A stretch of 64,000 bases of DNA, from IMG/VR virus record IMGVR_UViG_3300032093_000003; one strand, 5' to 3'. Below are positions 7,198 through 39,948 of the stretch, one piece after another. The notes below the pieces were generated by a model. The model saw only the letters and a program-made list of their open reading frames with translations. It had not been told where the DNA came from and did no database searches. Source of the stretch: a virus (Duplodnaviria; Heunggongvirae; Uroviricota; Caudoviricetes). The position numbers and the translations under genes were made by a program. Each line of letters opens with the position of its first letter. Position 1 is the stretch's first letter.

Positions 7198-8937
7198 TTA
7201 TCTTAATGTATCCAAGCTAAATGTAGTTAAACCATTTACTGTGATAGTACCGAAGTAACGGTTGTTAACCATTTTCTTCGCGTATCTTGTCATGATACCT
7301 TTGATAGGTGTCATTGTGAATGGATTATACATTGTTGGAGTCAACTGTAAAGGTACGTATGGAGCGTAGATGTAACCAGCGTCCAATAAAGATTTACCTT
7401 TATGACCAATCAAGATCTTATTCGCAGGGAAGTAAGGATCACGATAAACTTGGTAACGACCAGCAAGTGAACCTACTTTTTCGATACCCATGTTATATTG
7501 ATCTTGCTCAGGAGCTGCGTTTGATACGTGGAAATACTCTAAATCATCGAATACTGCAGAAACTTCTGAAGAAACAACGATCCAGTTAGCACCACCTCTC
7601 AAAGTAGTCTTGTGGATTTGAGCAGAAATTTGGTTGATCTTGGTAACCAAAGTTTGGTTCCAGTCTTTCTGAGTGTAACCTTGAAGAGTTGCACCACCTG
7701 TTCCACCATATTTCCATTCGTTATAGTCCCATTTAGCCGTCCAAGCTGCACCTTTTCTAAGGTCACGTAAGATTTCACGATCAACCTCAGCTGCGATTTG
7801 CTCAGATAACAATGCTGTTAACTCAGCTTCAGCGTCGATGTTGTGGAATGCACTTACGTCTTGAGCCAATTCAGGAGACCAAGTAGCTCTCAACTTTCTT
7901 TCAGTAACAGAAACTGTTACAGATTGAAGATCGAAAGAAACTTCACCAATTTCATCTTCGAATTCTAATGTTTCATACACTCTGAAGTGTAAAACGAAGT
8001 CAGCAAGAGCGAATGTACTATTAAGTGTTGTGTTAGAGTAACCGGACACAGAAGAATAGTTTTGTAAATCTACTTGAACATAAATTGTTCCTGTTTCATC
8101 ACAAATGTCATTATACTTAGCAGTACCACCCATAGCACCTGGGAAAGTAGCTGTTGATTTTTGACCGTATTCAACAATACCTTTACCGTATTTTTGAGTT
8201 ACGATATTGAAGTTTTTAGAAACACCACTGAATTTAATTTCAGCAGATGCTAAAAATTCTTCAGTATCCATAATCTGACCGTTAGGTCCAATTAATTTAC
8301 CTTGACCGTCTTTAGCGAATCCGGTGAACGTAAGAATTAATGAAGGAACGCTTTGACTATTTAATGAACTTAATGGACTTACAGGTGTAGCCACACCGTT
8401 ACTGAAATTAACTACACTAGCAGCATTCATTGTGATAGCACTGAATCTACCTTTAGAATAATCGAAAAGTCCTGTGTCAGGTGCGTTACCGTCACCAGTC
8501 TCATAGAAACGATCATAAAGGTTTACTCCAGTATATCCATCATCAGCAGAACCTGTTCCACCAGGAATACCATATGGTGTGTAGTGTGATCCACTGTTTC
8601 TTTCCTGAATTTTAGGAATGAAGTAGAATAATTTACCGATAGGTAAGTTCATAGCTTGTACAGACACGATGTCATTAGCTAATAATTTAGAGAATACACG
8701 TCTGATGATTGGGAATACAACAGTTTCGAAAGAACCTGATGCATCCGCAACCGCAGCTTCGTTGATTAAGTATGAAGCTTGGTTTTCATACAATTGTGCA
8801 ATGTTATCTTTTTGGTGACCATCAAGACCTTCTAAAAAGCCTAAGTCATCCCATTTTTTAATGGTATCTTCTTTGATAACACGAAGGTGCTTAAGACCGA
8901 TGTTACCAACCATACCTGATTCTAATAATGCTCCCAT
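7198..8937 (-). CDS. major capsid protein (candidate)
   Basis: 579-aa ORF immediately downstream of the scaffold and protease genes; markedly higher GC and strong codon bias compared with flanks (high expression); followed by a terminator hairpin. Confidence 0.6.
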   Translation of the reverse strand: MGALLESGMVGNIGLKHLRVIKEDTIKKWDDLGFLEGLDGHQKDNIAQLYENQASYLINEAAVADASGSFETVVFPIIRRVFSKLLANDIVSVQAMNLPIGKLFYFIPKIQERNSGSHYTPYGIPGGTGSADDGYTGVNLYDRFYETGDGNAPDTGLFDYSKGRFSAITMNAASVVNFSNGVATPVSPLSSLNSQSVPSLILTFTGFAKDGQGKLIGPNGQIMDTEEFLASAEIKFSGVSKNFNIVTQKYGKGIVEYGQKSTATFPGAMGGTAKYNDICDETGTIYVQVDLQNYSSVSGYSNTTLNSTFALADFVLHFRVYETLEFEDEIGEVSFDLQSVTVSVTERKLRATWSPELAQDVSAFHNIDAEAELTALLSEQIAAEVDREILRDLRKGAAWTAKWDYNEWKYGGTGGATLQGYTQKDWNQTLVTKINQISAQIHKTTLRGGANWIVVSSEVSAVFDDLEYFHVSNAAPEQDQYNMGIEKVGSLAGRYQVYRDPYFPANKILIGHKGKSLLDAGYIYAPYVPLQLTPTMYNPFTMTPIKGIMTRYAKKMVNNRYFGTITVNGLTTFSLDTLR

Positions 8938-12525: not shown

Positions 12526-14367
12526 TTAATCGTTTAATATATCTTTTATTTTATTTTCTATTTCATAAATATTCTCTTGTGCCTTATTAAAATTAAATAA
12601 ATCATTTAAATCTTTTTTTTCATCACCTAACATACTTAAAATTTTACTTTTTTTACTTTTGTTTTCACCTTCGGATAGTGTCTCTCCTCCACCTCCACCG
12701 GCTGGTGGCGGCGGTGCTGCTGATGCTCCTCCACCCATATCCATTCCACCACCTCCAGGTGATTCACTACCCGCTGATCCAGACGCCTCTAATTTCTTCC
12801 TCTCTTCTTCCGGTATACCGTATTTTCTATCAACTTCATCAAACACACCCGAACGTTTTATTATGTTCTGTGTATTTGTTAATTCAAATCCGATCGCTCT
12901 TTCAAGACGTTGTTGTTCTAAGTCTAATATAACTTCATTATCACTAAAACCTAAAATATTTTTCTTAGCCCAAGTATGTGAAACAGGTAAAATACCTATT
13001 TGTGATTGGTCGGATGTTGCATCTTTATAAAGAGTTATTTTTTCTTTCCATTGTTCTATTTTTAACAAATCAGACTGAGAGGAAGGATTTGTTAAAGATA
13101 ATTGGAAATTATGTAGTTCATCCTCCAAACCCACAAGTGATAGGTGTATTAATGCAATTTTATTTAATTCTTGAATTAATGATTTCTGTATTTTATTAAT
13201 TGTTCTGGCAAATCTAATATCCATTAATGCCAAATTCTTACCATCCCCAACAACTTCCTCAAAACCTAAAAACGCCTTAGGAATTCTAAGTGCCGCCAAC
13301 ATTTTCTTTTGAATATATTCAATATCGGCAATTTCACCTAAGTTCTGTGCTCCTGCCAATGTTTCAATTGGATTTGCGGCTGAAGGGTCACGAACGGGAA
13401 TAAAATAATCTTGATCAACGGCCATTTGATTATATCTCATATCGACTTGACCGTTTTTAGGATCAGGTACCGCTTGTCTTTTAAATTTATTTGCAACTCT
13501 TTGTACATATGGTTCGATATCCTTATCATCCATATTACCAACAAATATTTTAAATACACGTCTCTCAGGTGCTCTTGATGTTCTATAAATTAACATTGCG
13601 TCTTCCGCTAATAGAAGTTGTTTCCAAATTCTTCTAATTTTATCTAACATAGAGGTACCATATGGTAATTTTCTATCGTCACCCAATAACCTAAAATGAG
13701 CAATTTCCCAGGCTTGGAATTCCATGTCTTTATTTTTCCACTGAAATCTTAACTCTCTTGTTGGTATTTTAATATCTCTTTGATTTGGTGTTTTAGAAGA
13801 CGCGCCTTCAATTCTTTCTATCTCTATGTTTGGTAATTGTTGACAACCAACAATACCATCTTTAGGGTCTATTTTAAGGTATACAAAATCATCACCATAT
13901 TTACAAAGACCTCTCGTCCACATTTGTAGATTTGTTGCTATGTCTAACTTATTATTGAATAGATCTTGTAGTATGGATTTAACTCTATCTGATTCTGAAT
14001 ATATTGTTAAAATTTCACCTTTTTCTGATGGTGTCGTACTTTCTTCTGCGTATATATCCAATGCCGCGGAAATTTCGGGTGTGAATTCCATTGATTCATA
14101 ATCATAATATGCGGCCAATCTATTTGGTTCATAATAAACAGATTGATTATATAATGATTGATCTAATTTAGCCCACTTATCTGCAATATATTGACTTTGT
14201 TGGGATTGTAATAAAGCCGAATCATATTCTTCTTTACTACTTGTTTTTAATAATTCTTCTTTAGAGAAATTAAATGACGGATTTTCTGGTTGAGTAGGTT
14301 TATTTTGACCAACAAAACCAAACATCTTGGTTAATTTCTGAAATACTGTAATATTTTGATCTGCCAT
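12526..14367 (-). CDS. portal protein (candidate)
   Basis: 613-aa ORF immediately downstream of terminase large subunit on same strand; glycine-rich C-terminus. Confidence 0.55.
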   Translation of the reverse strand: MADQNITVFQKLTKMFGFVGQNKPTQPENPSFNFSKEELLKTSSKEEYDSALLQSQQSQYIADKWAKLDQSLYNQSVYYEPNRLAAYYDYESMEFTPEISAALDIYAEESTTPSEKGEILTIYSESDRVKSILQDLFNNKLDIATNLQMWTRGLCKYGDDFVYLKIDPKDGIVGCQQLPNIEIERIEGASSKTPNQRDIKIPTRELRFQWKNKDMEFQAWEIAHFRLLGDDRKLPYGTSMLDKIRRIWKQLLLAEDAMLIYRTSRAPERRVFKIFVGNMDDKDIEPYVQRVANKFKRQAVPDPKNGQVDMRYNQMAVDQDYFIPVRDPSAANPIETLAGAQNLGEIADIEYIQKKMLAALRIPKAFLGFEEVVGDGKNLALMDIRFARTINKIQKSLIQELNKIALIHLSLVGLEDELHNFQLSLTNPSSQSDLLKIEQWKEKITLYKDATSDQSQIGILPVSHTWAKKNILGFSDNEVILDLEQQRLERAIGFELTNTQNIIKRSGVFDEVDRKYGIPEEERKKLEASGSAGSESPGGGGMDMGGGASAAPPPPAGGGGGETLSEGENKSKKSKILSMLGDEKKDLNDLFNFNKAQENIYEIENKIKDILND

Positions 14368-14419: not shown

Positions 14420-16195
14420 TTATTTACGTTTAGTAAATAACCAAGAATATTCTTTATATATGTCTTTTCCAACATTCATTGTGTTATCTTTGTGATAAAA
14501 ACTATTATCCATTGCTAATGCACCTATTGGGTCTAAAGTTGTTCCATATGAATAAAAAGTTTTATTGGCTTCATATGTTCTTTCGGATGATACCCAAGAT
14601 TCTAACATTGCTTTATTAGTTGAATCGGCTCTTTGTAATTGATTAAAACAAATTTCACCAGCATATAATGCCATGGATAGACTCATAATAGAATCATCGT
14701 GAGATCCCTTCATATGGTCTGGTCTACCGTTTATGTAAACAAATGTGTTTAATTCATTTAGTAATCTATTTGATCTAACAATAAAACCTTTTCTTAGTTG
14801 TTCTTCAAATGATGCGACTATCTGGGTTCTTTTATTGTTAAAATTAATACCGGGAATTTTTTCCATCGCTTTCTTATTGTATTCCCAAATATTTTGTGTA
14901 TTAATACCGTCAATATAAATGTTTTTATAATTTAATTCTTGTAATTTTCTTGATGTTGCAACACCCATACCACCAGTTATATCCACAACCACAAAGGCGT
15001 TTCCATAAAGGATACCCCATTTATAAACAATTGACGCTAAATCATCTGGTGGTATTTTACCAATATATTCTAACACCTGTTCTCTATCATCAAAATCAAT
15101 AATATTGATCGAAGAAAAATCTTCACTATCACCTCTACTCACATCAACACCCATAATATAACGATGACCCTCAACTGGTTCTTTCCATTGCCAAAGTGTA
15201 CCTTGCATGTACTTTTCCATTGGTTGTCTGATCATATTTTTTGCAATATTTTCTTGGGTTTCACTTGGAATAACACCATCACCTGAACCTAAAAAGTCAC
15301 ACTCCAATTCCTGTGCAATTTTACGTCTATCATATTTGAATTTTTTAGACATTGATTCAAACCAAGATGAAAATGGTTTATATCCTTGTTCTTCATATTC
15401 TCTATATTTTTCAACATCAAAATCATACATTACCACTTCATCATCATTATATTGTTCTCTATTCAACATATAATGACATATGTCAGCACATTTAACCCAA
15501 CGTAAGTCTTTAGTGTAACGAGGGTCTTTAAACCATCTTAAATCTGTTATATGGAAATCATTTATACCACGTAACGCTTGGTCATAAACACCATAATAAA
15601 TCGGATCATAACCATTTGGTGTTGATATAAGAATAATCTTACCACCCGTAGATAGTGACGCCATAGATGCCGCCCAAAAGTCTTCTCCCGCTTCAATATA
15701 TGCCGCCTCATCAAATACAAGTATCGTTGGTGTGTAACCACGTAATGCATCCGCAGATGTCGCAACCGCTTTAACTTCACATCCATTATTTAATCTAAAT
15801 CTACTTTCTGAGTTTTTATCAGGGTGAAAACCCACATTAATCCATTCTGGCCATTGATCCAAGAAATGTCTAACTTTATTGGCCATTTCAATCGCGGTAT
15901 CTCTCTTATTCGCAATAATCAGAACCCTTTCAGGATTTTCGGGTTTTGCGGTTTGGAGTTTTTTTGAAATCCAAGCGGCTGTTACTGTAGATACACCCGC
16001 CTGTCTATATTTTCTTGTTATATTTTCATTATAAGTTTCATAATCCTTAATCAATTGAACTTGATCAGGAAACAATTCTAAGGGTACGAATTTCTTTTGT
16101 GTATTATCATAAGTTGTTAAGTATGTTTTTAAGGCATACGGAGCATCTTTGATAATCTTAGCGTATTCTTTTAACTGTTCAATCTTTGTGTTCAT
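14420..16195 (-). CDS. terminase large subunit
   Basis: Walker A-like RQAGVST, Walker B LVFDEAAYI, C-terminal RNaseH-like nuclease region (MGVDVSRGDSEDFS); size 591 aa. Confidence 0.8.
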   Translation of the reverse strand: MNTKIEQLKEYAKIIKDAPYALKTYLTTYDNTQKKFVPLELFPDQVQLIKDYETYNENITRKYRQAGVSTVTAAWISKKLQTAKPENPERVLIIANKRDTAIEMANKVRHFLDQWPEWINVGFHPDKNSESRFRLNNGCEVKAVATSADALRGYTPTILVFDEAAYIEAGEDFWAASMASLSTGGKIILISTPNGYDPIYYGVYDQALRGINDFHITDLRWFKDPRYTKDLRWVKCADICHYMLNREQYNDDEVVMYDFDVEKYREYEEQGYKPFSSWFESMSKKFKYDRRKIAQELECDFLGSGDGVIPSETQENIAKNMIRQPMEKYMQGTLWQWKEPVEGHRYIMGVDVSRGDSEDFSSINIIDFDDREQVLEYIGKIPPDDLASIVYKWGILYGNAFVVVDITGGMGVATSRKLQELNYKNIYIDGINTQNIWEYNKKAMEKIPGINFNNKRTQIVASFEEQLRKGFIVRSNRLLNELNTFVYINGRPDHMKGSHDDSIMSLSMALYAGEICFNQLQRADSTNKAMLESWVSSERTYEANKTFYSYGTTLDPIGALAMDNSFYHKDNTMNVGKDIYKEYSWLFTKRK

Positions 16196-21471: not shown

Positions 21472-21831
21472 TTAATTAAGAGAAATTAGTTTTTCCAAAG
21501 TTTTTTTCTTTGAAATTGGTAATGTTAATTCTAACACACCATTTTCGACCTTACCTTCAATTTGATTTTCATTTACCTCATCAGGTAAAGTGTAGGTTTT
21601 TGTGAAGTTTGGTACAAATGTCGAACCACCTTCTTTTTCAAAAGTGATTTTCAAAATACCATCTTTTGTGGTGATCTTGAGATCACTCTTGGTTAGTCCC
21701 GGTACAGGAATAGTTACAACATAACCTGTTTCATCTTTATTAACTTTGGTTTTCGGAACATTAAGTTCTCTTTCAAATTCAAACATTTTATCAAATGCCT
21801 GAAAAAATGGGTCTTTAAATAATGTAATCAT
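21472..21831 (-). CDS. Hsp20/alpha-crystallin family small heat-shock protein
   Basis: ACD-like pattern DETGYVVTIPVPGLTKSDLKITTKDGILKITFEKE. Confidence 0.6.
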   Translation of the reverse strand: MITLFKDPFFQAFDKMFEFERELNVPKTKVNKDETGYVVTIPVPGLTKSDLKITTKDGILKITFEKEGGSTFVPNFTKTYTLPDEVNENQIEGKVENGVLELTLPISKKKTLEKLISLN

Positions 21832-22846: not shown

Positions 22847-24862
22847 ATGTCAGTAGATTTCATTGATGATGGGCAACCAACAAACCAAAATAAGAAAGGT
22901 AAGAGAAATTCTAATACACCTATATTAGATAATTTCTCAAGAGATTTGATAAAATTAGCACAAGAAGGTAAAATAGACCCTATTGTTGGTAGAGATAAAG
23001 AAGTAAAAAGAATTGCACAAATTCTTTCAAGAAAGAAGAAAAATAATGTTGTTATTGTGGGTGATGCCGGTGTGGGTAAATCGGCATTGGTTGAAAAATT
23101 GGCGCTATTGATTAATAAAGGTAACTGTCCTTCAAATCTTTTAGATAAAAGAATAATGTCATTGGATTTGACATCTTTAGTTGCGGGTACCAAGTATAGG
23201 GGTCAATTTGAAGAAAGGATTAAAGCGATATTAAATGAATTACAAGAAGCACCGAATGTAATTGTTTTTATTGATGAATTACACACAATGGTCGGTGCAG
23301 GTAATGCCAGCGGATCAATGGATGCAGCCAACATATTAAAACCCGCACTTGCTCGTGGTGAAATTCAATGTATTGGTGCAACAACTTTTGATGAATACAA
23401 AAAGAACATCGAAAAAGATTCTGCGTTAGTTAGAAGATTCCAAAAAATAATCTTACCGGAACCAACAGAAAAAGAAACTGTTGAAATTTTGGAAAATCTT
23501 AAAACATCATATGAGAATTTTCATAAAGTAAAATATGAAGATGGTGTTATTGATACTATTGTTAAAGTATCAAAAAGATTTATGACTGACAGACAATTTC
23601 CTGATAAGGCAATTGATATTATGGATGAATTAGGTTCAGAAAAGAAAATATCTAATAAAATACCTGAAAGTGTTGAAAAATTAAAACAAGAAGTTGAGGA
23701 AATAAAACAAAAAAAATTAGATGTCGTTAAAACACAGAATTATGAATTGGCAGCTAAATTAAGAGATACAGAAAAAACTGTTCTATCAAAATTAGAACAA
23801 GAAAAAGAAAAATGGTTGATAAACCAACAAAATAATAAAACACCAATTAGTATTGAAGATGTTTACCAGATAATTTCAAATATTACTGGTGTACCAATTA
23901 CAAAATTGGATTCAAAAGAAACAGAAAAACTTTTGAATTTAGATAAAATTTTAACATCTAAGGTTATTGGACAGAATGAGGCGATATCAATCATATCTAA
24001 ATGTATCAGAAGAAATAGAGTTGGTATTAAAGATACAAATAAACCAATCGGATCATTTATATTCTTAGGATCAACTGGTGTCGGTAAAACATATCTTGCA
24101 AAATCATTGGCTGAAATATTATTTGGTGATCCCGAAAAAATGATTCGTGTGGATATGAGTGAATTTATGGAGAAACACAATGTATCTAAATTAATTGGTT
24201 CACCTCCCGGTTACGTTGGATATGATGAAGGTGGTCAATTAACAGAAAAGGTAAAAAACAATCCATTTTCAGTTATATTGTTTGATGAAATTGAAAAGGC
24301 ACATAAAGATGTTTTCAATTTGTTGTTACAAATTTTAGATGAAGGACACTTAACCGATTCTTTTGGTAGAAAAGTTAACTTCACCAATACTTTGATTATT
24401 ATGACATCAAATGTTGGGGCTAAAAAAGTTTCTGAATTTGGTGGGGGAGTTGGTTTTGAAACATCTTCAACAAATAAACAAAAAGAAGAAGTTAAAAAAA
24501 CAATGATACAAAAATCATTGAAACAACAATTCAATCCTGAATTTTTAAATAGAATTGATGATGTAATCCTTTTCAATTCTTTAGACGAAAATGCACTAAA
24601 ACAAATTATTGGTGTTGAATTAAATAAATTAAAAAATAGATTAACTGAAAAAGGATACAAAGTTAATTTTGACGAATCAGTATCACAAAAGATATATGAA
24701 TTAAATCAACAAGAAGAATATGGAGCGAGACCCATAAAAAGAATAATACAAAATCTTTGTGAGGATTTCTTAAGTGAAGAAATTCTAAAAGGTACTATAA
24801 AAGAAAATGTTTTAGCAAATTTGAAAATTAAAGACGGAGAATTGGTAATTAGAAAAAAATAA
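22847..24862 (+). CDS. Hsp100/Clp ATPase (ClpB/ClpC-like, two AAA+ modules, no N-domain)
   Basis: NBD1 GDAGVGKSA / VIVFIDELHTMVGAG; NBD2 GSTGVGKT / SVILFDEIEKAHKDVFNLLLQILDEG; GSPPGYVGYDEGGQLTE signature; coiled-coil middle segment. Confidence 0.85.
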   Translation: MSVDFIDDGQPTNQNKKGKRNSNTPILDNFSRDLIKLAQEGKIDPIVGRDKEVKRIAQILSRKKKNNVVIVGDAGVGKSALVEKLALLINKGNCPSNLLDKRIMSLDLTSLVAGTKYRGQFEERIKAILNELQEAPNVIVFIDELHTMVGAGNASGSMDAANILKPALARGEIQCIGATTFDEYKKNIEKDSALVRRFQKIILPEPTEKETVEILENLKTSYENFHKVKYEDGVIDTIVKVSKRFMTDRQFPDKAIDIMDELGSEKKISNKIPESVEKLKQEVEEIKQKKLDVVKTQNYELAAKLRDTEKTVLSKLEQEKEKWLINQQNNKTPISIEDVYQIISNITGVPITKLDSKETEKLLNLDKILTSKVIGQNEAISIISKCIRRNRVGIKDTNKPIGSFIFLGSTGVGKTYLAKSLAEILFGDPEKMIRVDMSEFMEKHNVSKLIGSPPGYVGYDEGGQLTEKVKNNPFSVILFDEIEKAHKDVFNLLLQILDEGHLTDSFGRKVNFTNTLIIMTSNVGAKKVSEFGGGVGFETSSTNKQKEEVKKTMIQKSLKQQFNPEFLNRIDDVILFNSLDENALKQIIGVELNKLKNRLTEKGYKVNFDESVSQKIYELNQQEEYGARPIKRIIQNLCEDFLSEEILKGTIKENVLANLKIKDGELVIRKK

Positions 24863-25291: not shown

Positions 25292-25717
25292 ATGGAAGAA
25301 AAAAAATATGTCGGAGATTTAATTCTTTTAAGAGGAGTACCAGGTAGTGGTAAATCTACATTAGGTAAAACAATTTTAAGATGTTTAGCTTCAGATGATC
25401 CTGACGTTATTTCTGCGGATGATTTTTTTCTTGACGAAAAGGGTAATTATATTTTTGATTCCACAAAATTAAAAGAGGCACATGCACAATCACAACAAAG
25501 ATGTGCAACAAAAATGAAAAATGAATTTTCAAGAATTGTTGTCGCGAATACCTTTACACAGAAATGGGAAATGGACGCATATTACGAAATGGCGGAAAGA
25601 TACAATTACAGGGTTTTTAGTGTGATTGTTGAAAATAGACACGGAAATTTAAATATTCACGATGTTCCCGAAGAAAAAGTTGAACAAATGAAAAATAGAT
25701 TTGATGTTTCTCTTTAA
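25292..25717 (+). CDS. P-loop kinase (polynucleotide kinase-like, AAA_33-type)
   Basis: Walker A GVPGSGKST at N-terminus, small size, immediately upstream of RNA ligase. Confidence 0.55.
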   Translation: MEEKKYVGDLILLRGVPGSGKSTLGKTILRCLASDDPDVISADDFFLDEKGNYIFDSTKLKEAHAQSQQRCATKMKNEFSRIVVANTFTQKWEMDAYYEMAERYNYRVFSVIVENRHGNLNIHDVPEEKVEQMKNRFDVSL

Positions 25718-26787
25718 TGTTAGATATATTAGAAAAATATCACAATGATGGTCTGTTATTAAAACAGACACACCCAACATTACCTTTAACAATTTGGAAT
25801 TACTCACCAAAAGTTCAATATGATAACTTATGGGATGATGTTATTATTCAATGTAGAGGATTAGTTACCGATGTTGATGGTAATATTGTTGCTCGACCTT
25901 TTCCAAAATTTTTTAATTACGAAGAATTAAAACCCGAACAGATACCAAACGAACCATTTGATGTTTTTGAAAAATTAGATGGGTCTTTAGGTATATTATT
26001 TAATTATGAAGGTCAATGGGTATTTGCAACTCGTGGATCATTTACATCCGATCAAGCAAAAAGAGGATGGGAACTTCTTCAAAAATATGACTACCAAAGA
26101 TTAATTGAGGATAAAACATATCTATTTGAAATAATTTATAAAGAAAATCGTATTGTTGTTGATTATGATTATGAAGATCTAATAATGCTCGGTGTAATTG
26201 ACAATATCGATGGTTACGAATATAAAATATTTGACGAAAGAATCCATCTTGAAGGTGTTAGGTTCGTTAATATGTATAGAAATCTTGGATTTAAATTTGT
26301 TAAAAAATATGATGGTATAAAAGACTATTCAACCCTAAAAGAAATAATCAAAGATAATGAAGAGGGATTCGTTATTAGATTTCAAAATGGGTTTAGAATG
26401 AAAATAAAAGGTGTAGAATATTGTCGTCTCCATAAAATCCTAACAAACATCTCAAATAGAGATATTTGGGAATCTTTAAAAAATGGAGAATCATTAGATA
26501 AAATTATTGAAAAGGTACCCGATGAATTTTATAATTGGGTAAAAGAAACAAAAAATAAATTTGAGTCAGAATTTGATAAAATAAAAAAAGAATATGAATG
26601 GATATTCAAAGTTATTATGAGATCGGAAAATTCAAATGAAAGAAAAGTATTCGCACAATTTGCAATAAAATACAAATATTCTTCAATTCTATTTTCTATG
26701 TATGATAATAAACCATATAATCAAACAATATGGAAAATCCTATATCCTGAGTATTCGAAACCTTTTAAAAAAAATGATAATGAGTAA
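25717..26787 (+). CDS. RNA ligase (T4 Rnl1-like nucleotidyltransferase)
   Basis: Motif I lysine in FEKLDGSLG (compare T4 RnlA TKEDGSL); start overlaps kinase stop. Confidence 0.6.
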   Translation: MLDILEKYHNDGLLLKQTHPTLPLTIWNYSPKVQYDNLWDDVIIQCRGLVTDVDGNIVARPFPKFFNYEELKPEQIPNEPFDVFEKLDGSLGILFNYEGQWVFATRGSFTSDQAKRGWELLQKYDYQRLIEDKTYLFEIIYKENRIVVDYDYEDLIMLGVIDNIDGYEYKIFDERIHLEGVRFVNMYRNLGFKFVKKYDGIKDYSTLKEIIKDNEEGFVIRFQNGFRMKIKGVEYCRLHKILTNISNRDIWESLKNGESLDKIIEKVPDEFYNWVKETKNKFESEFDKIKKEYEWIFKVIMRSENSNERKVFAQFAIKYKYSSILFSMYDNKPYNQTIWKILYPEYSKPFKKNDNE

Positions 26788-27208
26788 ATTAAAATTGTAT
26801 TTAGACGATGTTCGTGTTCCAAAAGACAATAGTTGGATTCTTGTAAAAGACTATGGTGAATTTGTAAGTACCATATTAAAACATGGTTTAGAAAGTTTTG
26901 ATACCATTTCTTTGGATCACGATTTGGGTGAGACTGCAATGGCTGAATATTTTAACAATGTTTACCCAAACTATGAACTGAACTACGATAACATAAAAGA
27001 AAAAACTGGATTGGATTGTGCGAAATGGTTGGTGAATCATTATTTGGAAAAACCAAAAGAAAATTTTACCTTTCCACTTGTTTATACTCATTCCGCAAAC
27101 CCGATAGGTTCCGCAAATATTATGGGTTATATAAACAATTTTTTAAAAAACATGAGACAACCCCAAACATGTATTAGGGTACGTATTGATCACACAATAA
27201 ACGAATAA
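26774..27208 (+). CDS. receiver-like (Rossmannoid) domain protein, possibly RNA-repair associated
   Basis: LYLDDVR ... ISLDHDLGE pattern reminiscent of CheY-like/cyclic-phosphate-processing receiver domains; start chosen at internal ATG 26774. Confidence 0.3.
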   Translation: MIMSKLKLYLDDVRVPKDNSWILVKDYGEFVSTILKHGLESFDTISLDHDLGETAMAEYFNNVYPNYELNYDNIKEKTGLDCAKWLVNHYLEKPKENFTFPLVYTHSANPIGSANIMGYINNFLKNMRQPQTCIRVRIDHTINE

Positions 27209-29843: not shown

Positions 29844-29920
29844 TTTTAATAATTAAATGTAACGTAAAAAAAAATCTCTTAAAATTTTAAGAGATTTTTT
29901 GTTTTAAGGAATATATTGTT

Positions 29921-29928
29921 TATCTTTG
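29921..29928 (+). promoter_or_regulatory. Bacteroidota-type -7 promoter box TAtcTTTG upstream of tRNA-Leu
   Basis: Matches TAnnTTTG consensus, ~30 nt upstream of tRNA 5' end. Confidence 0.45.
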
Positions 29929-29958: not shown

Positions 29959-30047
29959 GCCCCGGTGGTGGAACAGGTAGACACGCAGGACTTAAAATCC
30001 TGTGGACCGAAACGTCCGTGCGGGTTCGATTCCCGCCTGGGGCACCA
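29959..30047 (+). tRNA. tRNA-Leu (anticodon TAA), type II with long variable arm, CCA encoded
   Basis: Acceptor GCCCCGG/CTGGGGC, anticodon loop CTTAAAA, T-loop GGTTCGATTCC, 3' CCA. Confidence 0.7.
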
Positions 30048-30084
30048 ATACTATCGTTCTTTGACATATAAGGAGAAACAAATT

Positions 30085-30450
30085 ATGGAAATACTTTTCT
30101 TTATTTTAGGAATTACTTCCGTGGTGGTTATTGCGACCGCAATAGTTGCTGTGGTAAGTATTGTTAAGGTAACAAAGTTACAAACAAAAGTTAAAGATGG
30201 TTTTGATGGTGTTTATCATTCAATTGATAATACACATACTTCCATCGATAACACAAAAAGAGATACTCACGATAACATCGGAAGATTAAATGAAGAAGTT
30301 AATCGTAGAGTTGATAACCTCGAAAGAGAAACCTTCTCACAGTTAGATTCTCGATTAGATAAGTTGGAAACGAAGTTAAAAACTTACGTTCACACTAATG
30401 CAACCATGATGAAACTTGCATTAGATACACATAAAGCAACATCAAAATAA
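30085..30450 (+). CDS. membrane-anchored coiled-coil protein
   Basis: N-terminal TM helix (ILFFILGITSVVVIATAIVAVV) then heptad-like region; start placed at ATG 30085 because the ORF-track N-terminal extension overlaps tRNA-Leu. Confidence 0.4.
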   Translation: MEILFFILGITSVVVIATAIVAVVSIVKVTKLQTKVKDGFDGVYHSIDNTHTSIDNTKRDTHDNIGRLNEEVNRRVDNLERETFSQLDSRLDKLETKLKTYVHTNATMMKLALDTHKATSK

Positions 30451-30479
30451 AATAAAAGTCAAAAGAACGATAGTATTAA

Positions 30480-30898
30480 GGTTGAACGGGGAATGAAGAT
30501 TAAGACACCTGTTGGTGGTTGGTGATTATCTTCGGAGTTGGAACCAACATAGTAATGCCGTTCGTAAAAGAGGATGTCCACTCGACCATCTTCCTCTTTC
30601 CTTCTTGGTCTCATAGTTTAAGGGAAAAACGGTAGCCTTCTAAGCTTCTGATCCTAGTTCGAGTCTAGGTGAGACTACAAAGTTCCTGTAGGCCGCGGGA
30701 TCGTAGTTCCTCTATTCCACTGACAAAAGTCAAGAAAAGAGCCAGATCGTAAGCTGGATGGGTTGACAACTTTCCCACTGACTCGGAAAAAAGTTGTAAA
30801 TTTTAAGCGGGTCCTCGCTTCCCACGGTTTAATAGTACAAGGATAATGAAGGGAATAATACGACCCCTAAGACCTGCTTTTATTAAAAAAAATAAAAT
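30480..30898 (+). other. GC-rich structured noncoding region (~420 nt) with embedded tRNA-Arg-like gene
   Basis: No ORF, GC far above local background, multiple hairpins (e.g. TGTTGG...CCAACA, GAGGA...TCCTC). Confidence 0.3.
30607..30677 (+). tRNA. tRNA-Arg (anticodon TCT), candidate
   Basis: Acceptor GGTCTCA/TGAGACT, D-stem GTTT/AAAC, anticodon loop CTTCTAA (one stem mismatch), T-arm CCTAG-TTCGAGT-CTAGG. Confidence 0.45.
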
Positions 30899-37354: not shown

Positions 37355-38277
37355 GGAAACGATAAAGTTCTTTGAAAATATTGGGCGGTCTATAGTCCAT
37401 AAAATAAACCATGAAAGTGGTATAAAGTGGAATACCTTGGTTTTGGTATTCTGCGGCTTGGGTAACCGAGCTCGAGTAGACAAACGAGATATCGTCTGAC
37501 CTTTAGTACTGAGGGTAACACTGTAGGGAAAGTGGTTGGGCGATCAAGCGATGTGGGTCGTTTGGTTGAGGTGGGAACACCAATAAGAATAACTCGTAGA
37601 ATTATTGCAAGAAATGTTGTTATCCGACTTCATAATTGCGTTTTTCAATATTATGGTTGTCTTAAAACCGAAAGGTATGTTAGTGTACAGGTGGTGCTGT
37701 TATTAACCTTAACCTTAGCCTACCAAGGCATGAGTTATGAAGATGAGCAAAAATATGGAGGTGGGGACATCTCAGAGGGTAGTTTAGTATTTAGCCGTTC
37801 AAAAGATGGCTGAGCTGGTGACGAACCACTACCTTCACAATCCACAAACCAATAACTTGCATCCATTTAATTGCAAAATTAATAAATCAAGGAAAAGTGT
37901 TCGTCAGTTGTGGATGACAGGTCACTACATAGTCATGAGTTGTTCATGGCCATGAAGGGTCCCAAGCCCAACATGATTTTCACCAAAGTTCTCTAATCTC
38001 GCAAGGATTAATTGGGGTGGCAACCTCGAAGAGTGATGAGTAATGAGAGAGTGATTCACAACTTAAGGATTGGTTAATCTAATTGACCGTGACTGATTAT
38101 TACTACTCAAAAGGTAGTGGATAAGGGAAGAATCAATAATGTCCCAAAGATAATCACCCGAACGTGTAATCTCAGCGTTTTATTTTCCTGATTTTTATAA
38201 AATCATGGTGGTGGAGTAATAAAAAGATTTCATGCCGCAAGGCCCCAAAGGTTAGATTTTTCTAACCTTTTTTTGTT
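37355..38277 (+). ncRNA. candidate large structured ncRNA (~920 nt; GOLLD/ROOL-like class or novel)
   Basis: Promoter-to-terminator unit without credible ORF (only a 93-aa low-complexity ORF), GC well above flanking coding DNA, directly adjacent to tRNA array, ends in a strong intrinsic terminator. Confidence 0.4.
38247..38277 (+). terminator. intrinsic terminator ending the long ncRNA unit
   Basis: AAAGGTTAGATTTTTCTAACCTTTTTTTG. Confidence 0.55.
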
Positions 38278-39301: not shown

Positions 39302-39355
39302 TAAAAAAAATAAAAGATAAATTGGGTTAAATTTTTATTTAACCCTTTTTTTGTC

Positions 39356-39363
39356 TATATTTG
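39356..39363 (+). promoter_or_regulatory. -7 box TAtaTTTG upstream of tmRNA
   Basis: TAnnTTTG, followed by AAGTTCTTTAAAA box 12 nt before tmRNA 5' end. Confidence 0.45.
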
Positions 39364-39382
39364 TGAAAGTTCTTTAAAATAT

Positions 39383-39775
39383 GGGGGTGTCCAGGTATTG
39401 ATTGGCGTTTATATGGTAAATGGGCACGTAGTCAGATGTCATCTATGACTTAAATCTACGGTGGTAAAAATCAAACGGCAACGTTTACAACAACATGGAA
39501 ATTGCAGGTATCCTTGCAACTTCTAAAGTAGCTGCTTAATAAGTACCTACTGTCGGGTCGGTTAGGACATATAACCCAGGAACAGAAGTCCGTTATACGG
39601 GTCACAGGTCAGAGCTCGTTTAAAATAATTCTGAGACCAAGTTGTTTGTAGGTAGGTTTCTCACATATATCAAACCTAATATTTTGGAACATTGAGAACC
39701 AATGTTATACTAAACGTGTAGTCCATCTATTGTATGGCGAACAAGACAAGGGTTCGATTCCCTTCACCTCCACCA
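39383..39775 (+). ncRNA. ssrA: tmRNA (ssrA), phage-encoded
   Basis: 5' GGGGGTG pairs with 3' CACCTCC-A-CCA (G3:U70), T-arm AAGGG-TTCGATT-CCCTT, ~390 nt ORF-less, internal tag frame ...GILATSKVAA followed by TAA at 39537-39539, flanked by promoter and terminator. Confidence 0.7.
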
Positions 39776-39781
39776 AAAATT

Positions 39782-39810
39782 AAACCCATCGAATTCGATG
39801 GGTTTTTTAT
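39782..39810 (+). terminator. intrinsic terminator after tmRNA
   Basis: AAACCCATCGAATTCGATGGGTTTTTTAT. Confidence 0.55.
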
Positions 39811-39948
39811 TTATAATAACTGAGGTTTATAAACGAACAAAGAGGTCTTTAGGACCCCTTTGTCGAGATTTGGAATACCCCCTTTCGTTTTTTTCGAGTT
39901 ATCATCTAATGGCGACCAAACCATTAAACTCTAATATAAATATCTAAT

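Follow-up and report, generated by a model that had tools for sequence, protein, structure and literature searches.

The window analysed here, i.e. the whole 64-kb stretch, is DNA of a phage whose structural and packaging genes are T4-like. The major capsid protein, of T4 type, is encoded at 7198-8937; the portal gene lies at 12526-14367 and that of the large terminase at 14420-16195. The capsid protein shows only 28-42% identity to those of GenBank phages. The phage must be very large, since the exact ClpC-like protein of the window is also present on contigs of up to 287 kb. Its host is likely to belong to the Bacteroidota, because the window has a G+C content of approximately 30%, contains the promoter motif described below, and carries a tmRNA gene whose 5′ domain resembles that of GENNYALAA-type tmRNAs and not that of E. 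coli ssrA.

This tmRNA is the last gene of a plus-strand RNA island comprising 24 tRNAs and a GOLLD RNA. ARAGORN identifies 23 tRNAs in the window, with a tRNA span of 29959-37205. The remaining features of this part of the genome are as follows.

36898-36984, plus strand: extra tRNA-Ser(GCU), within the RNA island
37775-38178, plus strand: GOLLD RNA, within the RNA island
39324-39345: terminator of a 66-aa ORF
39356-39363, plus strand: probable −7 box TATATTTG, Bacteroidota type (TAnnTTTG)
39383-39775, plus strand: mature one-piece tmRNA (ssrA) of 393 nt, CCA encoded, matching RF00023 over the full model
39782-39812, plus strand: intrinsic terminator with a 10-bp stem (five G-C pairs), a 4-nt loop and a T run

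Downstream of GOLLD the order is metallophosphoesterase, the 66-aa ORF, the tmRNA and the stem-loop of its terminator (39782-39805). PHROG families flank the tmRNA on both sides, and neither an integrase nor an att-type context was found around it. The gene is internal to the phage genome, and is not a host or att-site gene.

The Rfam tmRNA model RF00023 matches 39383-39775 on the plus strand from end to end (model positions 1-374 of 374) with a score of 86.8 bits (E 2.7e-32), the gathering score being 47 bits. A covariance-model search was one of the checks proposed in an initial annotation, which had recognized a tmRNA here from the letters of the sequence. ARAGORN, which had been named first among them, left the gene uncalled even at relaxed thresholds: no plus-strand tmRNA was reported in the window or in the excised region down to -ps80, and a permuted call on the complementary strand at -ps70 was spurious. 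Besides the window copy, 18 of the 37 members of the family described below go uncalled; since the program does call the other 19, the miss reflects the tool and not the gene. A two-piece (permuted) tmRNA of the Melnitz type was ruled out, as the standard 5′-to-3′ order fits RF00023 end to end. The nested-fold energy is only mildly below that of shuffled sequences (z = −1.85). The body of about 390 nt had been described as devoid of protein-coding potential, and indeed the sole ORF of at least 30 aa inside the gene is one of 44 aa on the minus strand. We consider it highly probable, judging from the sequence and its relatives, that this gene is a functional phage-encoded one-piece tmRNA. Its family membership, covarying structure, tag-frame conservation and phage context are directly supported, and every testable defining feature of a one-piece tmRNA is present with the exception of a demonstrable PK4, the support for PK2 and PK3 being modest.

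Homologues were sought by pattern scans of IMG/VR viral contigs followed by nhmmer, which resulted in 49 viral loci with full-length copies, representing 37 distinct sequences. The contigs that bear them are up to 318 kb in length, and in many of these a tRNA array adjoins the tmRNA. The RF00023 cut-off was passed by all 11 unsplit relatives tested, at 70-96 bits. In the closest relative (L202) the tag is identical and tRNAs, GOLLD and tmRNA follow one another as in the window, but a group I intron splits the T loop. The window copy encodes its own CCA; some relatives have ACAA, ACTA or ACTT instead and would need CCA addition. A profile search also revealed viral tmRNAs that are less closely related and have even longer tags, of 24-36 codons.

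Bacteroidota promoters are characterized by a −33 TTTG and a −7 TAnnTTTG element. Most family members possess TTTG, a spacer of about 19 nt and TAtcTTTG, followed by a conserved GTTCTTTgAAAtAT which extends up to the mature 5′ end. The bipartite motif occurs 15 times in the window versus 5.95 ± 2.4 times in shuffled sequences, a number not attained in any of 100 shuffles; several of these copies immediately precede tRNA genes, and others are situated in the interval from tRNA-Met to the GOLLD match. The window tmRNA has the −7 box and lacks the −33 TTTG element. The initial annotation had given the gene its own promoter, and the start chosen there, 39356, coincides with the −7 box, which is the probable promoter, with a predicted leader of about 14 nt. 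A sigma-70-type match (39351-39380; 9/12) is a poor substitute: only 2 nt separate its −10 hexamer from the mature 5′ end, which would place the transcription start inside the acceptor stem, and it is not credible for that reason. Such matches are also no commoner in the window than in shuffles. The terminator that had been claimed is there, as the 10-bp stem at 39782-39805 followed by its T run, and a G+C-rich hairpin with a T run stands directly 3′ of the tmRNA in most relatives. The terminator of the window tmRNA could also serve convergent minus-strand genes.

RNA structure and covariation

The full structural model combines the Rfam alignment with nested folding and with pseudoknots built by hand, and contains the following elements.

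39383-39389, plus strand: acceptor 5′ strand GGGGGUG; G3 pairs with U at 39769 (the G:U alanine identity pair)
39400-39429, plus strand: helix 2, 5′ strand; partner 39714-39746
39430-39466, plus strand: PK1; stem 1 39430-39434/39446-39450, stem 2 39437-39443/39460-39466
39477-39542, plus strand: tag frame; resume codon GGC, 20 codons (GNVYNNMEIAGILATSKVAA), then UAA UAA
39502-39519, plus strand: putative extra hairpin in the tag frame, UUGCAG/loop/UUGCAA
39528-39550, plus strand: helix 5; 8 pairs, one C·C mismatch, stop codons in the loop
39560-39591, plus strand: predicted PK2; 39560-39564/39572-39576 and 39565-39568/39588-39591
39595-39638, plus strand: predicted PK3; 39595-39601/39615-39621 and 39607-39614/39629-39638
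39649-39706, plus strand: two 3′-domain hairpins at the PK4 position; 39649-39656/39671-39678 and 39688-39694/39700-39706
39748-39775, plus strand: T arm, acceptor 3′ strand, discriminator A and CCA

For the wide family, 36 of the 37 distinct sequences were aligned, and the model was compared with controls in which the 3′ partners had been slid. In the alignable helices 82% of the cells are paired versus 41-52% in the slid controls, and the covariation score is 0.313 versus 0.07-0.11. Among the eight closest sequences 96% of the cells of the 100-pair model are paired versus 38-44% in the slid controls, and 27 pairs have changed on both sides. The window sequence was the source of the model, and the comparison with slid partners is tilted in favour of it for that reason; the double-sided changes are independent of that.

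The tRNA-like domain is as it had been read initially. GGGGGUG (39383-39389) pairs with CACCUCC (39765-39771), the third pair being G:U, and ACCA follows at 39772-39775; the canonical T-arm, AAGGG-UUCGAUU-CCCUU, is found at 39748-39764. The G:U pair at acceptor position 3 is present in 36 of 36 sequences. All seven acceptor pairs stay paired throughout, six of them being invariant and one changing from G-C to G-U in one sequence. The T stem is 100% paired with all five pairs changed on both sides, and the discriminator A is invariant across the family. Helix 2 begins with a tandem G·A/A·G followed by U-A, and consists of 30 pairs in five segments; in the central segment 12 of 12 pairs have changed on both sides, and the distal segment is 100% paired.

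Four pseudoknots, PK1-PK4, had been expected. PK1, which is located immediately 5′ of the resume codon, is supported by compensatory change: its two stems cross and both covary, stem 1 being 98.9% paired (4 of 5 pairs changed on both sides) and stem 2 79.5% paired (5 of 7). Support for PK2 and PK3 is modest. Family-wide, PK2 is 89-93% paired, and one pair of its second stem appears as G-C in 18 sequences, C-G in 10 and U-A in two. PK3 can be aligned only among close relatives, where its stem 2 is 100% paired; one pair has switched from C-G to G-C, a compensatory change, and there are two consistent single changes besides. The fourth pseudoknot was not established. No crossing stem was found for it in the close relatives or in the family alignment, the region from PK2 to PK4 not being alignable across the wider family. 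Two candidates were dropped because inspection by eye showed them broken in relatives: a kissing interaction of UUCUC (39658-39662) with a GAGAA loop (39694-39698), and a closing helix CCAAG/UUUGG. The two plain hairpins at this position do vary in a compensatory manner, the first with two pairs changed on both sides among close relatives and the second with four family-wide.

In the RF00023 alignment the hairpin within the tag frame represents a 27-nt insertion relative to the Rfam consensus. It is 88-91% paired in close relatives, with two pairs changed on both sides, and only 63% paired family-wide in a fixed register; the case for this extra hairpin, made from such comparisons, is moderate. 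Helix 5, the loop of which holds the stop codons, is 87-97% paired in close relatives with three pairs changed on both sides.

The tag reading frame

The window gene specifies the tag (A)GNVYNNMEIAGILATSKVAA. An internal frame ending in ATSKVAA-TAA had been noted, and this is confirmed: it runs from GGC at 39477 to GCU GCU UAA UAA, the stops occupying 39537-39542. In alignments this GGC falls on the resume codon, likewise GGC, of tmRNAs of the GENNYALAA type, and an in-frame UAA stands three codons upstream of it in the window. Conservation of the frame in related phages, on which the initial reading depended, is complete: it is intact in all 37 distinct sequences, is 20-25 codons long and has indels only in multiples of 3 nt. 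The resume codon is GGC, GGA or GAC across these 37, and for several relatives ARAGORN independently reports identical G-initial tags.

The group with 21-codon tags has the consensus G-[NKED]-[TV]-[FYI]-A-x-[ML]-x-x-[LV]-G-L-x-x-x-[ED]-x-V-x-x-A. Synonymous switches are seen in Leu (TTA/CTT), Arg (AGA/CGN) and Phe (TTT/TTC), and the final Ala uses all four of its codons. The pooled pN/pS of the frame is 0.64, which suggests only moderate constraint on the tag peptide. From the synonymous switching and this ratio it is very probable that the frame is translated and that the tag matters beyond its final residues. Part of the conservation falls on the hairpin at 39502-39519, and therefore constraint at the RNA level contributes. 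The tags end in VAA, VGA, VNA or AVA, the last residue always being Ala; these ends are atypical for ClpX-type degrons, which terminate in LAA. In a database of 97,179 tmRNA sequences the commonest tag length is 10 residues (PMC11915505); a tag of 20-25 codons is unusually long, yet inside the known range.

Proposed role in ribosome rescue and possible partner genes

We infer the expression and charging of the window tmRNA, its reliance on SmpB of the host and what becomes of the proteins that it tags along the following lines. The RNA would be transcribed from its own Bacteroidota-type promoter and ended by its own terminator, and its short leader would be cut off by host RNase P. Host AlaRS would load alanine by way of the G3:U70 pair and the A discriminator, and host SmpB would bring the molecule to ribosomes that have stalled on mRNAs which are broken or have no stop codon. 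Translation would then resume at GGC, (A)GNVYNNMEIAGILATSKVAA would be appended, and the ribosome would be freed at UAA, the hydrophobic VAA end marking the product for an AAA+ protease. Host nucleases directed against tRNA or mRNA might also generate stalled ribosomes. If the phage shuts down or outlives host RNA synthesis, it probably needs a tmRNA supply of its own. As the initial annotation proposed, the phage may in this way manipulate ribosome rescue during infection.

No SmpB, ClpP or ClpX was found in the 64-kb window below E 0.16 by tblastn, for which approximate E. coli queries were used. Host factors are therefore presumably employed, and the function of the tmRNA depends on host SmpB accepting the RNA. 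The Hsp100 Clp ATPase that had been noticed in the same genome is encoded at 22847-24862. The protein resembles ClpC in having two AAA modules and a middle motif of the UVR type, but the Clp_N domain is absent. It contains a VGF loop, at a position which we take to be that of the ClpP-docking loop of B. subtilis ClpC. Synteny with a 100%-identical locus places Hsp20 and a PNK-like kinase next to the ClpC-like gene, followed by a T4 Rnl1-type RNA ligase and a cyclic-phosphate-processing domain protein. The same phage has 24 tRNAs in addition to this RNA-ligase repair module.

The tmRNA might work as described while its long tag serves as a phage-specific handle, for example for the ClpC-like unfoldase docking on host ClpP, in a private rescue-degradation route; we regard this as unlikely. 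It would account for a tag of 20-25 residues in 37 of 37 sequences when 10 is typical (PMC11915505), and for a conserved core, namely the above consensus from its initial G to [ED]-x-V, which is retained through synonymous codon switching. An ATPase with two AAA modules and a VGF loop but no Clp_N domain, and an adjoining Hsp20 gene, would also suit such a route. On the other hand, the tmRNA and the ClpC-like gene are 16.5 kb apart, pN/pS is indicative of only moderate constraint, and part of the conservation of the "G-L" motif coincides with the loop of the RNA hairpin and may be at the RNA level. Relatives of the ATPase occur on no fewer than 281 viral contigs. When the best 80 of these 281 were compared with the tmRNA-bearing contigs found in a scan for the 5′ signature there was no overlap, and these 80 include eight contigs of 100-324 kb with a ClpC 76-80% identical to that of the window, though a contig need not be a complete genome. 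A strict association of ClpC with the tmRNA is thus unsupported. The unfoldase is widespread without this tmRNA, so that a dedicated partnership is not supported, and a functional link of the tmRNA to the ClpC-like unfoldase, which had been hinted at, or to the RNA-repair genes is unproven. Carried further, the tag would be the address for the phage's own N-domain-less ClpC-like unfoldase together with host ClpP, and with the tRNAs, the Rnl1/kinase module, Hsp20 and GOLLD would constitute a private translation-rescue and proteostasis system. To this larger proposal we assign a slightly lower probability again; if true, the system could sustain infection while host nucleases cut tRNAs and mRNAs.

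It is very improbable that the RNA is a decoy which titrates SmpB, AlaRS or ribosomes and blocks host trans-translation in the manner of mycobacteriophage DS6A. In favour of a decoy, the tRNA-like domain of the window tmRNA is complete, and a phage tmRNA-like RNA is reported to inhibit the endogenous tmRNA in E. coli (PMC11915505, citing its reference 5). As described there, the DS6A form is without a tag frame. The window gene and its relatives do have one, conserved together with the resume context, PK1 and the position of the stop codons in helix 5, and this frame is under constraint at the amino-acid level, all of which would be pointless in a pure decoy.

Hardly credible is a non-functional relic, be it a host ssrA captured when a prophage excised imprecisely or a host gene lying at the edge of a prophage or of an assembly. 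Integration often takes place at the 3′ end of ssrA (PMC9004378), many viral contigs hold only 3′ fragments of ssrA of approximately 30 nt, and the profile search turned up a single weak homologue on a contig of 1.7 kb that had been binned with a Rickettsiaceae MAG. Against a relic, the 37 distinct versions are of full length, with helices that covary and a frame that is unbroken; the window gene has phage genes on both sides with no integrase nearby, and its 5′ signature gave no homologue among the first 120 bacterial-genome matches listed (single-sequence nhmmer).

Comparison with known tmRNAs

With bacterial one-piece tmRNAs (RF00023) the window gene shares a tRNA-like domain with G3:U70, helix 2, PK1, a G-initial resume codon, stop codons in the loop of helix 5 and the T arm, and it has candidate pseudoknots further downstream. 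The GENNYALAA-type tag is typical of Bacteroidota tmRNAs. The 5′ third of the window gene is similar to GENNYALAA-type tmRNAs of viral and prophage contigs (nhmmer 22-30 bits, profile positions 1-116 to 1-185), with which it has in common the motifs GCAyGUAGUG...CACUUUAAUCU...UUUAACnGGCGAAA, while the match of the window family to E. coli ssrA is limited to the last 70 nt.

There are also differences. The acceptor strand is GGGGGUG instead of the bacterial GGGGCUG, the D-loop analogue is UUGAUUG instead of UUUGACAGC or UUCGAC, and U-A takes the place of the C-G with which Watson-Crick pairing in helix 2 begins in E. coli. Family tags of 20-25 codons with an in-frame hairpin compare with bacterial tags of about 9-10 codons, and end in V-A-A, V-G-A or A-V-A instead of A-L-A-A. 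Two plain hairpins occupy the PK4 position, unlike in bacterial tmRNA, and the gene is carried by a phage, unlike bacterial ssrA.

Cluster C mycobacteriophages encode tmRNAs. Phage tmRNAs as such are not new: an ARAGORN survey recorded them in 402 of 18,146 phage genomes, or about 2% (PMC9004378), and huge phages carry tmRNA, some of them also SmpB (PMC7162821), which was not seen in the 64-kb window. Like the window gene, those reported are complete ssrA genes inside phage genomes which are often large and have many tRNAs or translation genes, and the role proposed for them and for the window tmRNA alike is to sustain or redirect ribosome rescue in infection. The sequences are nevertheless distinct. 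When the region and one relative were compared by blastn with 50,697 GenBank phage records there was no match, or one of only 30-40 nt at the 3′ end, and no family member was found among these records. The tmRNAs of Melnitz-type marine phages are two-piece and riboswitch-associated (PMC9004378), whereas that of the window is one-piece. The RNA of DS6A resembles the window gene as a phage-borne tmRNA-type tRNA-like domain; it is reported to be tag-less and to inhibit host tmRNA (PMC11915505), unlike the window gene with its conserved frame and full body.

The window gene leaves the existing view of how tmRNA works unchanged. What is notable about it is the long conserved tag, the in-frame hairpin, a previously unannotated family, and the nearby ClpC-like unfoldase and RNA-repair genes. 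As ARAGORN misses half of the family, surveys based on this program under-count phage tmRNAs. The long tag and its hairpin provide handles on the purpose of tagging, be it rescue supply, selective proteolysis or something else. The gene represents a well-supported, hitherto unannotated lineage of phage tmRNA in uncultured large phages which probably infect Bacteroidota, and its occurrence together with a near-complete tRNA set, GOLLD, RNA repair, the ClpC-like protein and Hsp20 makes this phage a candidate for studying how large phages may protect translation.

RNA island upstream of the tmRNA

The tmRNA closes an array of plus-strand tRNA genes and a GOLLD RNA, with the following features:

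29959-37205, +, 23 tRNAs predicted by ARAGORN
36898-36984, +, tRNA-Ser(GCU) with a long variable arm, missed by ARAGORN
37775-38178, +, conserved 3′ domain of GOLLD RNA (full-length match, 338.5 bits, E 2.3e-96)
38247-38270, terminator downstream of GOLLD
29898-29928, 35877-35907, 37084-37114, 37225-37255 and 37313-37344, +, examples of the promoter pattern

In Rfam, the sole match to the tRNA-Ser(GCU) is a sub-threshold one to tRNA-Sec (38.1 bits). Together with the 23 ARAGORN predictions it serves 19 amino acids, and alanine is the single gap in the tRNA set of the window. The tmRNA is therefore the only alanine-accepting RNA seen there, though the remainder of the roughly 287-kb genome may encode a tRNA-Ala.

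The GOLLD RNA is located 3′ of tRNA-Met (37133-37205) and 1.2 kb 5′ of the tmRNA, its 5′ part probably reaching back to about 37206. This gene order is common to the window and to L202, the locus with the closest tmRNA relative, where GOLLD occupies L202:627-1037. No GOLLD match is found in the stretches of DNA available for three related loci (L001-L003), all of which carry the tmRNA. That GOLLD adjoins phage tRNA islands was known before (PMC12286853).

The Bacteroidota-type promoter pattern TTTG-N17-21-TAnnTTTG occurs 15 times in the window, against 5.95 expected. The matches cluster in the RNA island, directly 5′ of tRNA genes and in the interval from tRNA-Met to the GOLLD match. Such enrichment suggests a Bacteroidota host. 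The 14 nt abutting the mature 5′ end of the tmRNA (39369-39382, GTTCTTTaAAATAT) are kept in about 25 otherwise divergent relatives, which is unusual since RNase P should discard such a leader. These nucleotides may act in processing or as an element close to the promoter.

ClpC-like ATPase and RNA repair genes

The protein-coding genes considered here are:

about 21472-21831, -, Hsp20 small heat-shock protein
22847-24862, +, ClpC-like double-AAA ATPase lacking the N domain, with a VGF loop (...EFGGGVGFETSS...)
about 25292-25717, +, PNK-like kinase
25717-26787, +, RNA ligase of the T4 Rnl1 type (PF09511, E 1.9e-20)
26702-27208, +, cyclic-phosphate-processing receiver-domain protein (PF20274, E 1.4e-19)

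The ATPase, named ClpC by JGI, has relatives on at least 281 IMG/VR contigs, many of them 200-350 kb in length. Its two flanking genes, for Hsp20 and the kinase, were placed by synteny with L415, a 100%-identical locus. The kinase, the ligase downstream of it and the PF20274 protein that follows resemble a module for tRNA/RNA repair, of the type that counters host anticodon nucleases.

Intron and tag variation among tmRNA relatives

In L202 (IMGVR_UViG_3300008108_000663) the tmRNA gene is interrupted by a group I intron of 192 nt (L202:4874-5065; RF00028, 61.7 bits), inserted immediately 3′ of the T loop's first U (GAGGGU / intron / UCGAAUCCCUC). We read this site as loop position 2 in the numbering of PMC11915505, where introns at that position are reported from Anaerolineae and one Myxococcota only. 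Once spliced, the L202 RNA has the same tag as the window copy and is otherwise near-identical to it.

Even longer tag frames are present in the more distant tmRNAs found with the family profile (L148, L128, L136, L176, L206, L032, L216 and L100), encoding 36 residues in L148 (GNTNENAQVRANMTVVHNILNGEVSASREVELAVAA), 27 in L032 and 24 in L216, a 1.7-kb contig binned, probably wrongly, to a Rickettsiaceae MAG. Between the window and the 93%-identical L001-L003, divergence is by far greatest in the tag-coding stretch 39477-39536 (GNVYNNMEIAGILATSKVAA versus GNTFAKMATLGLTREAVVVGA), whereas the pseudoknot domains are almost unchanged. Within this subgroup, therefore, the tag evolves faster than the scaffold that carries it.
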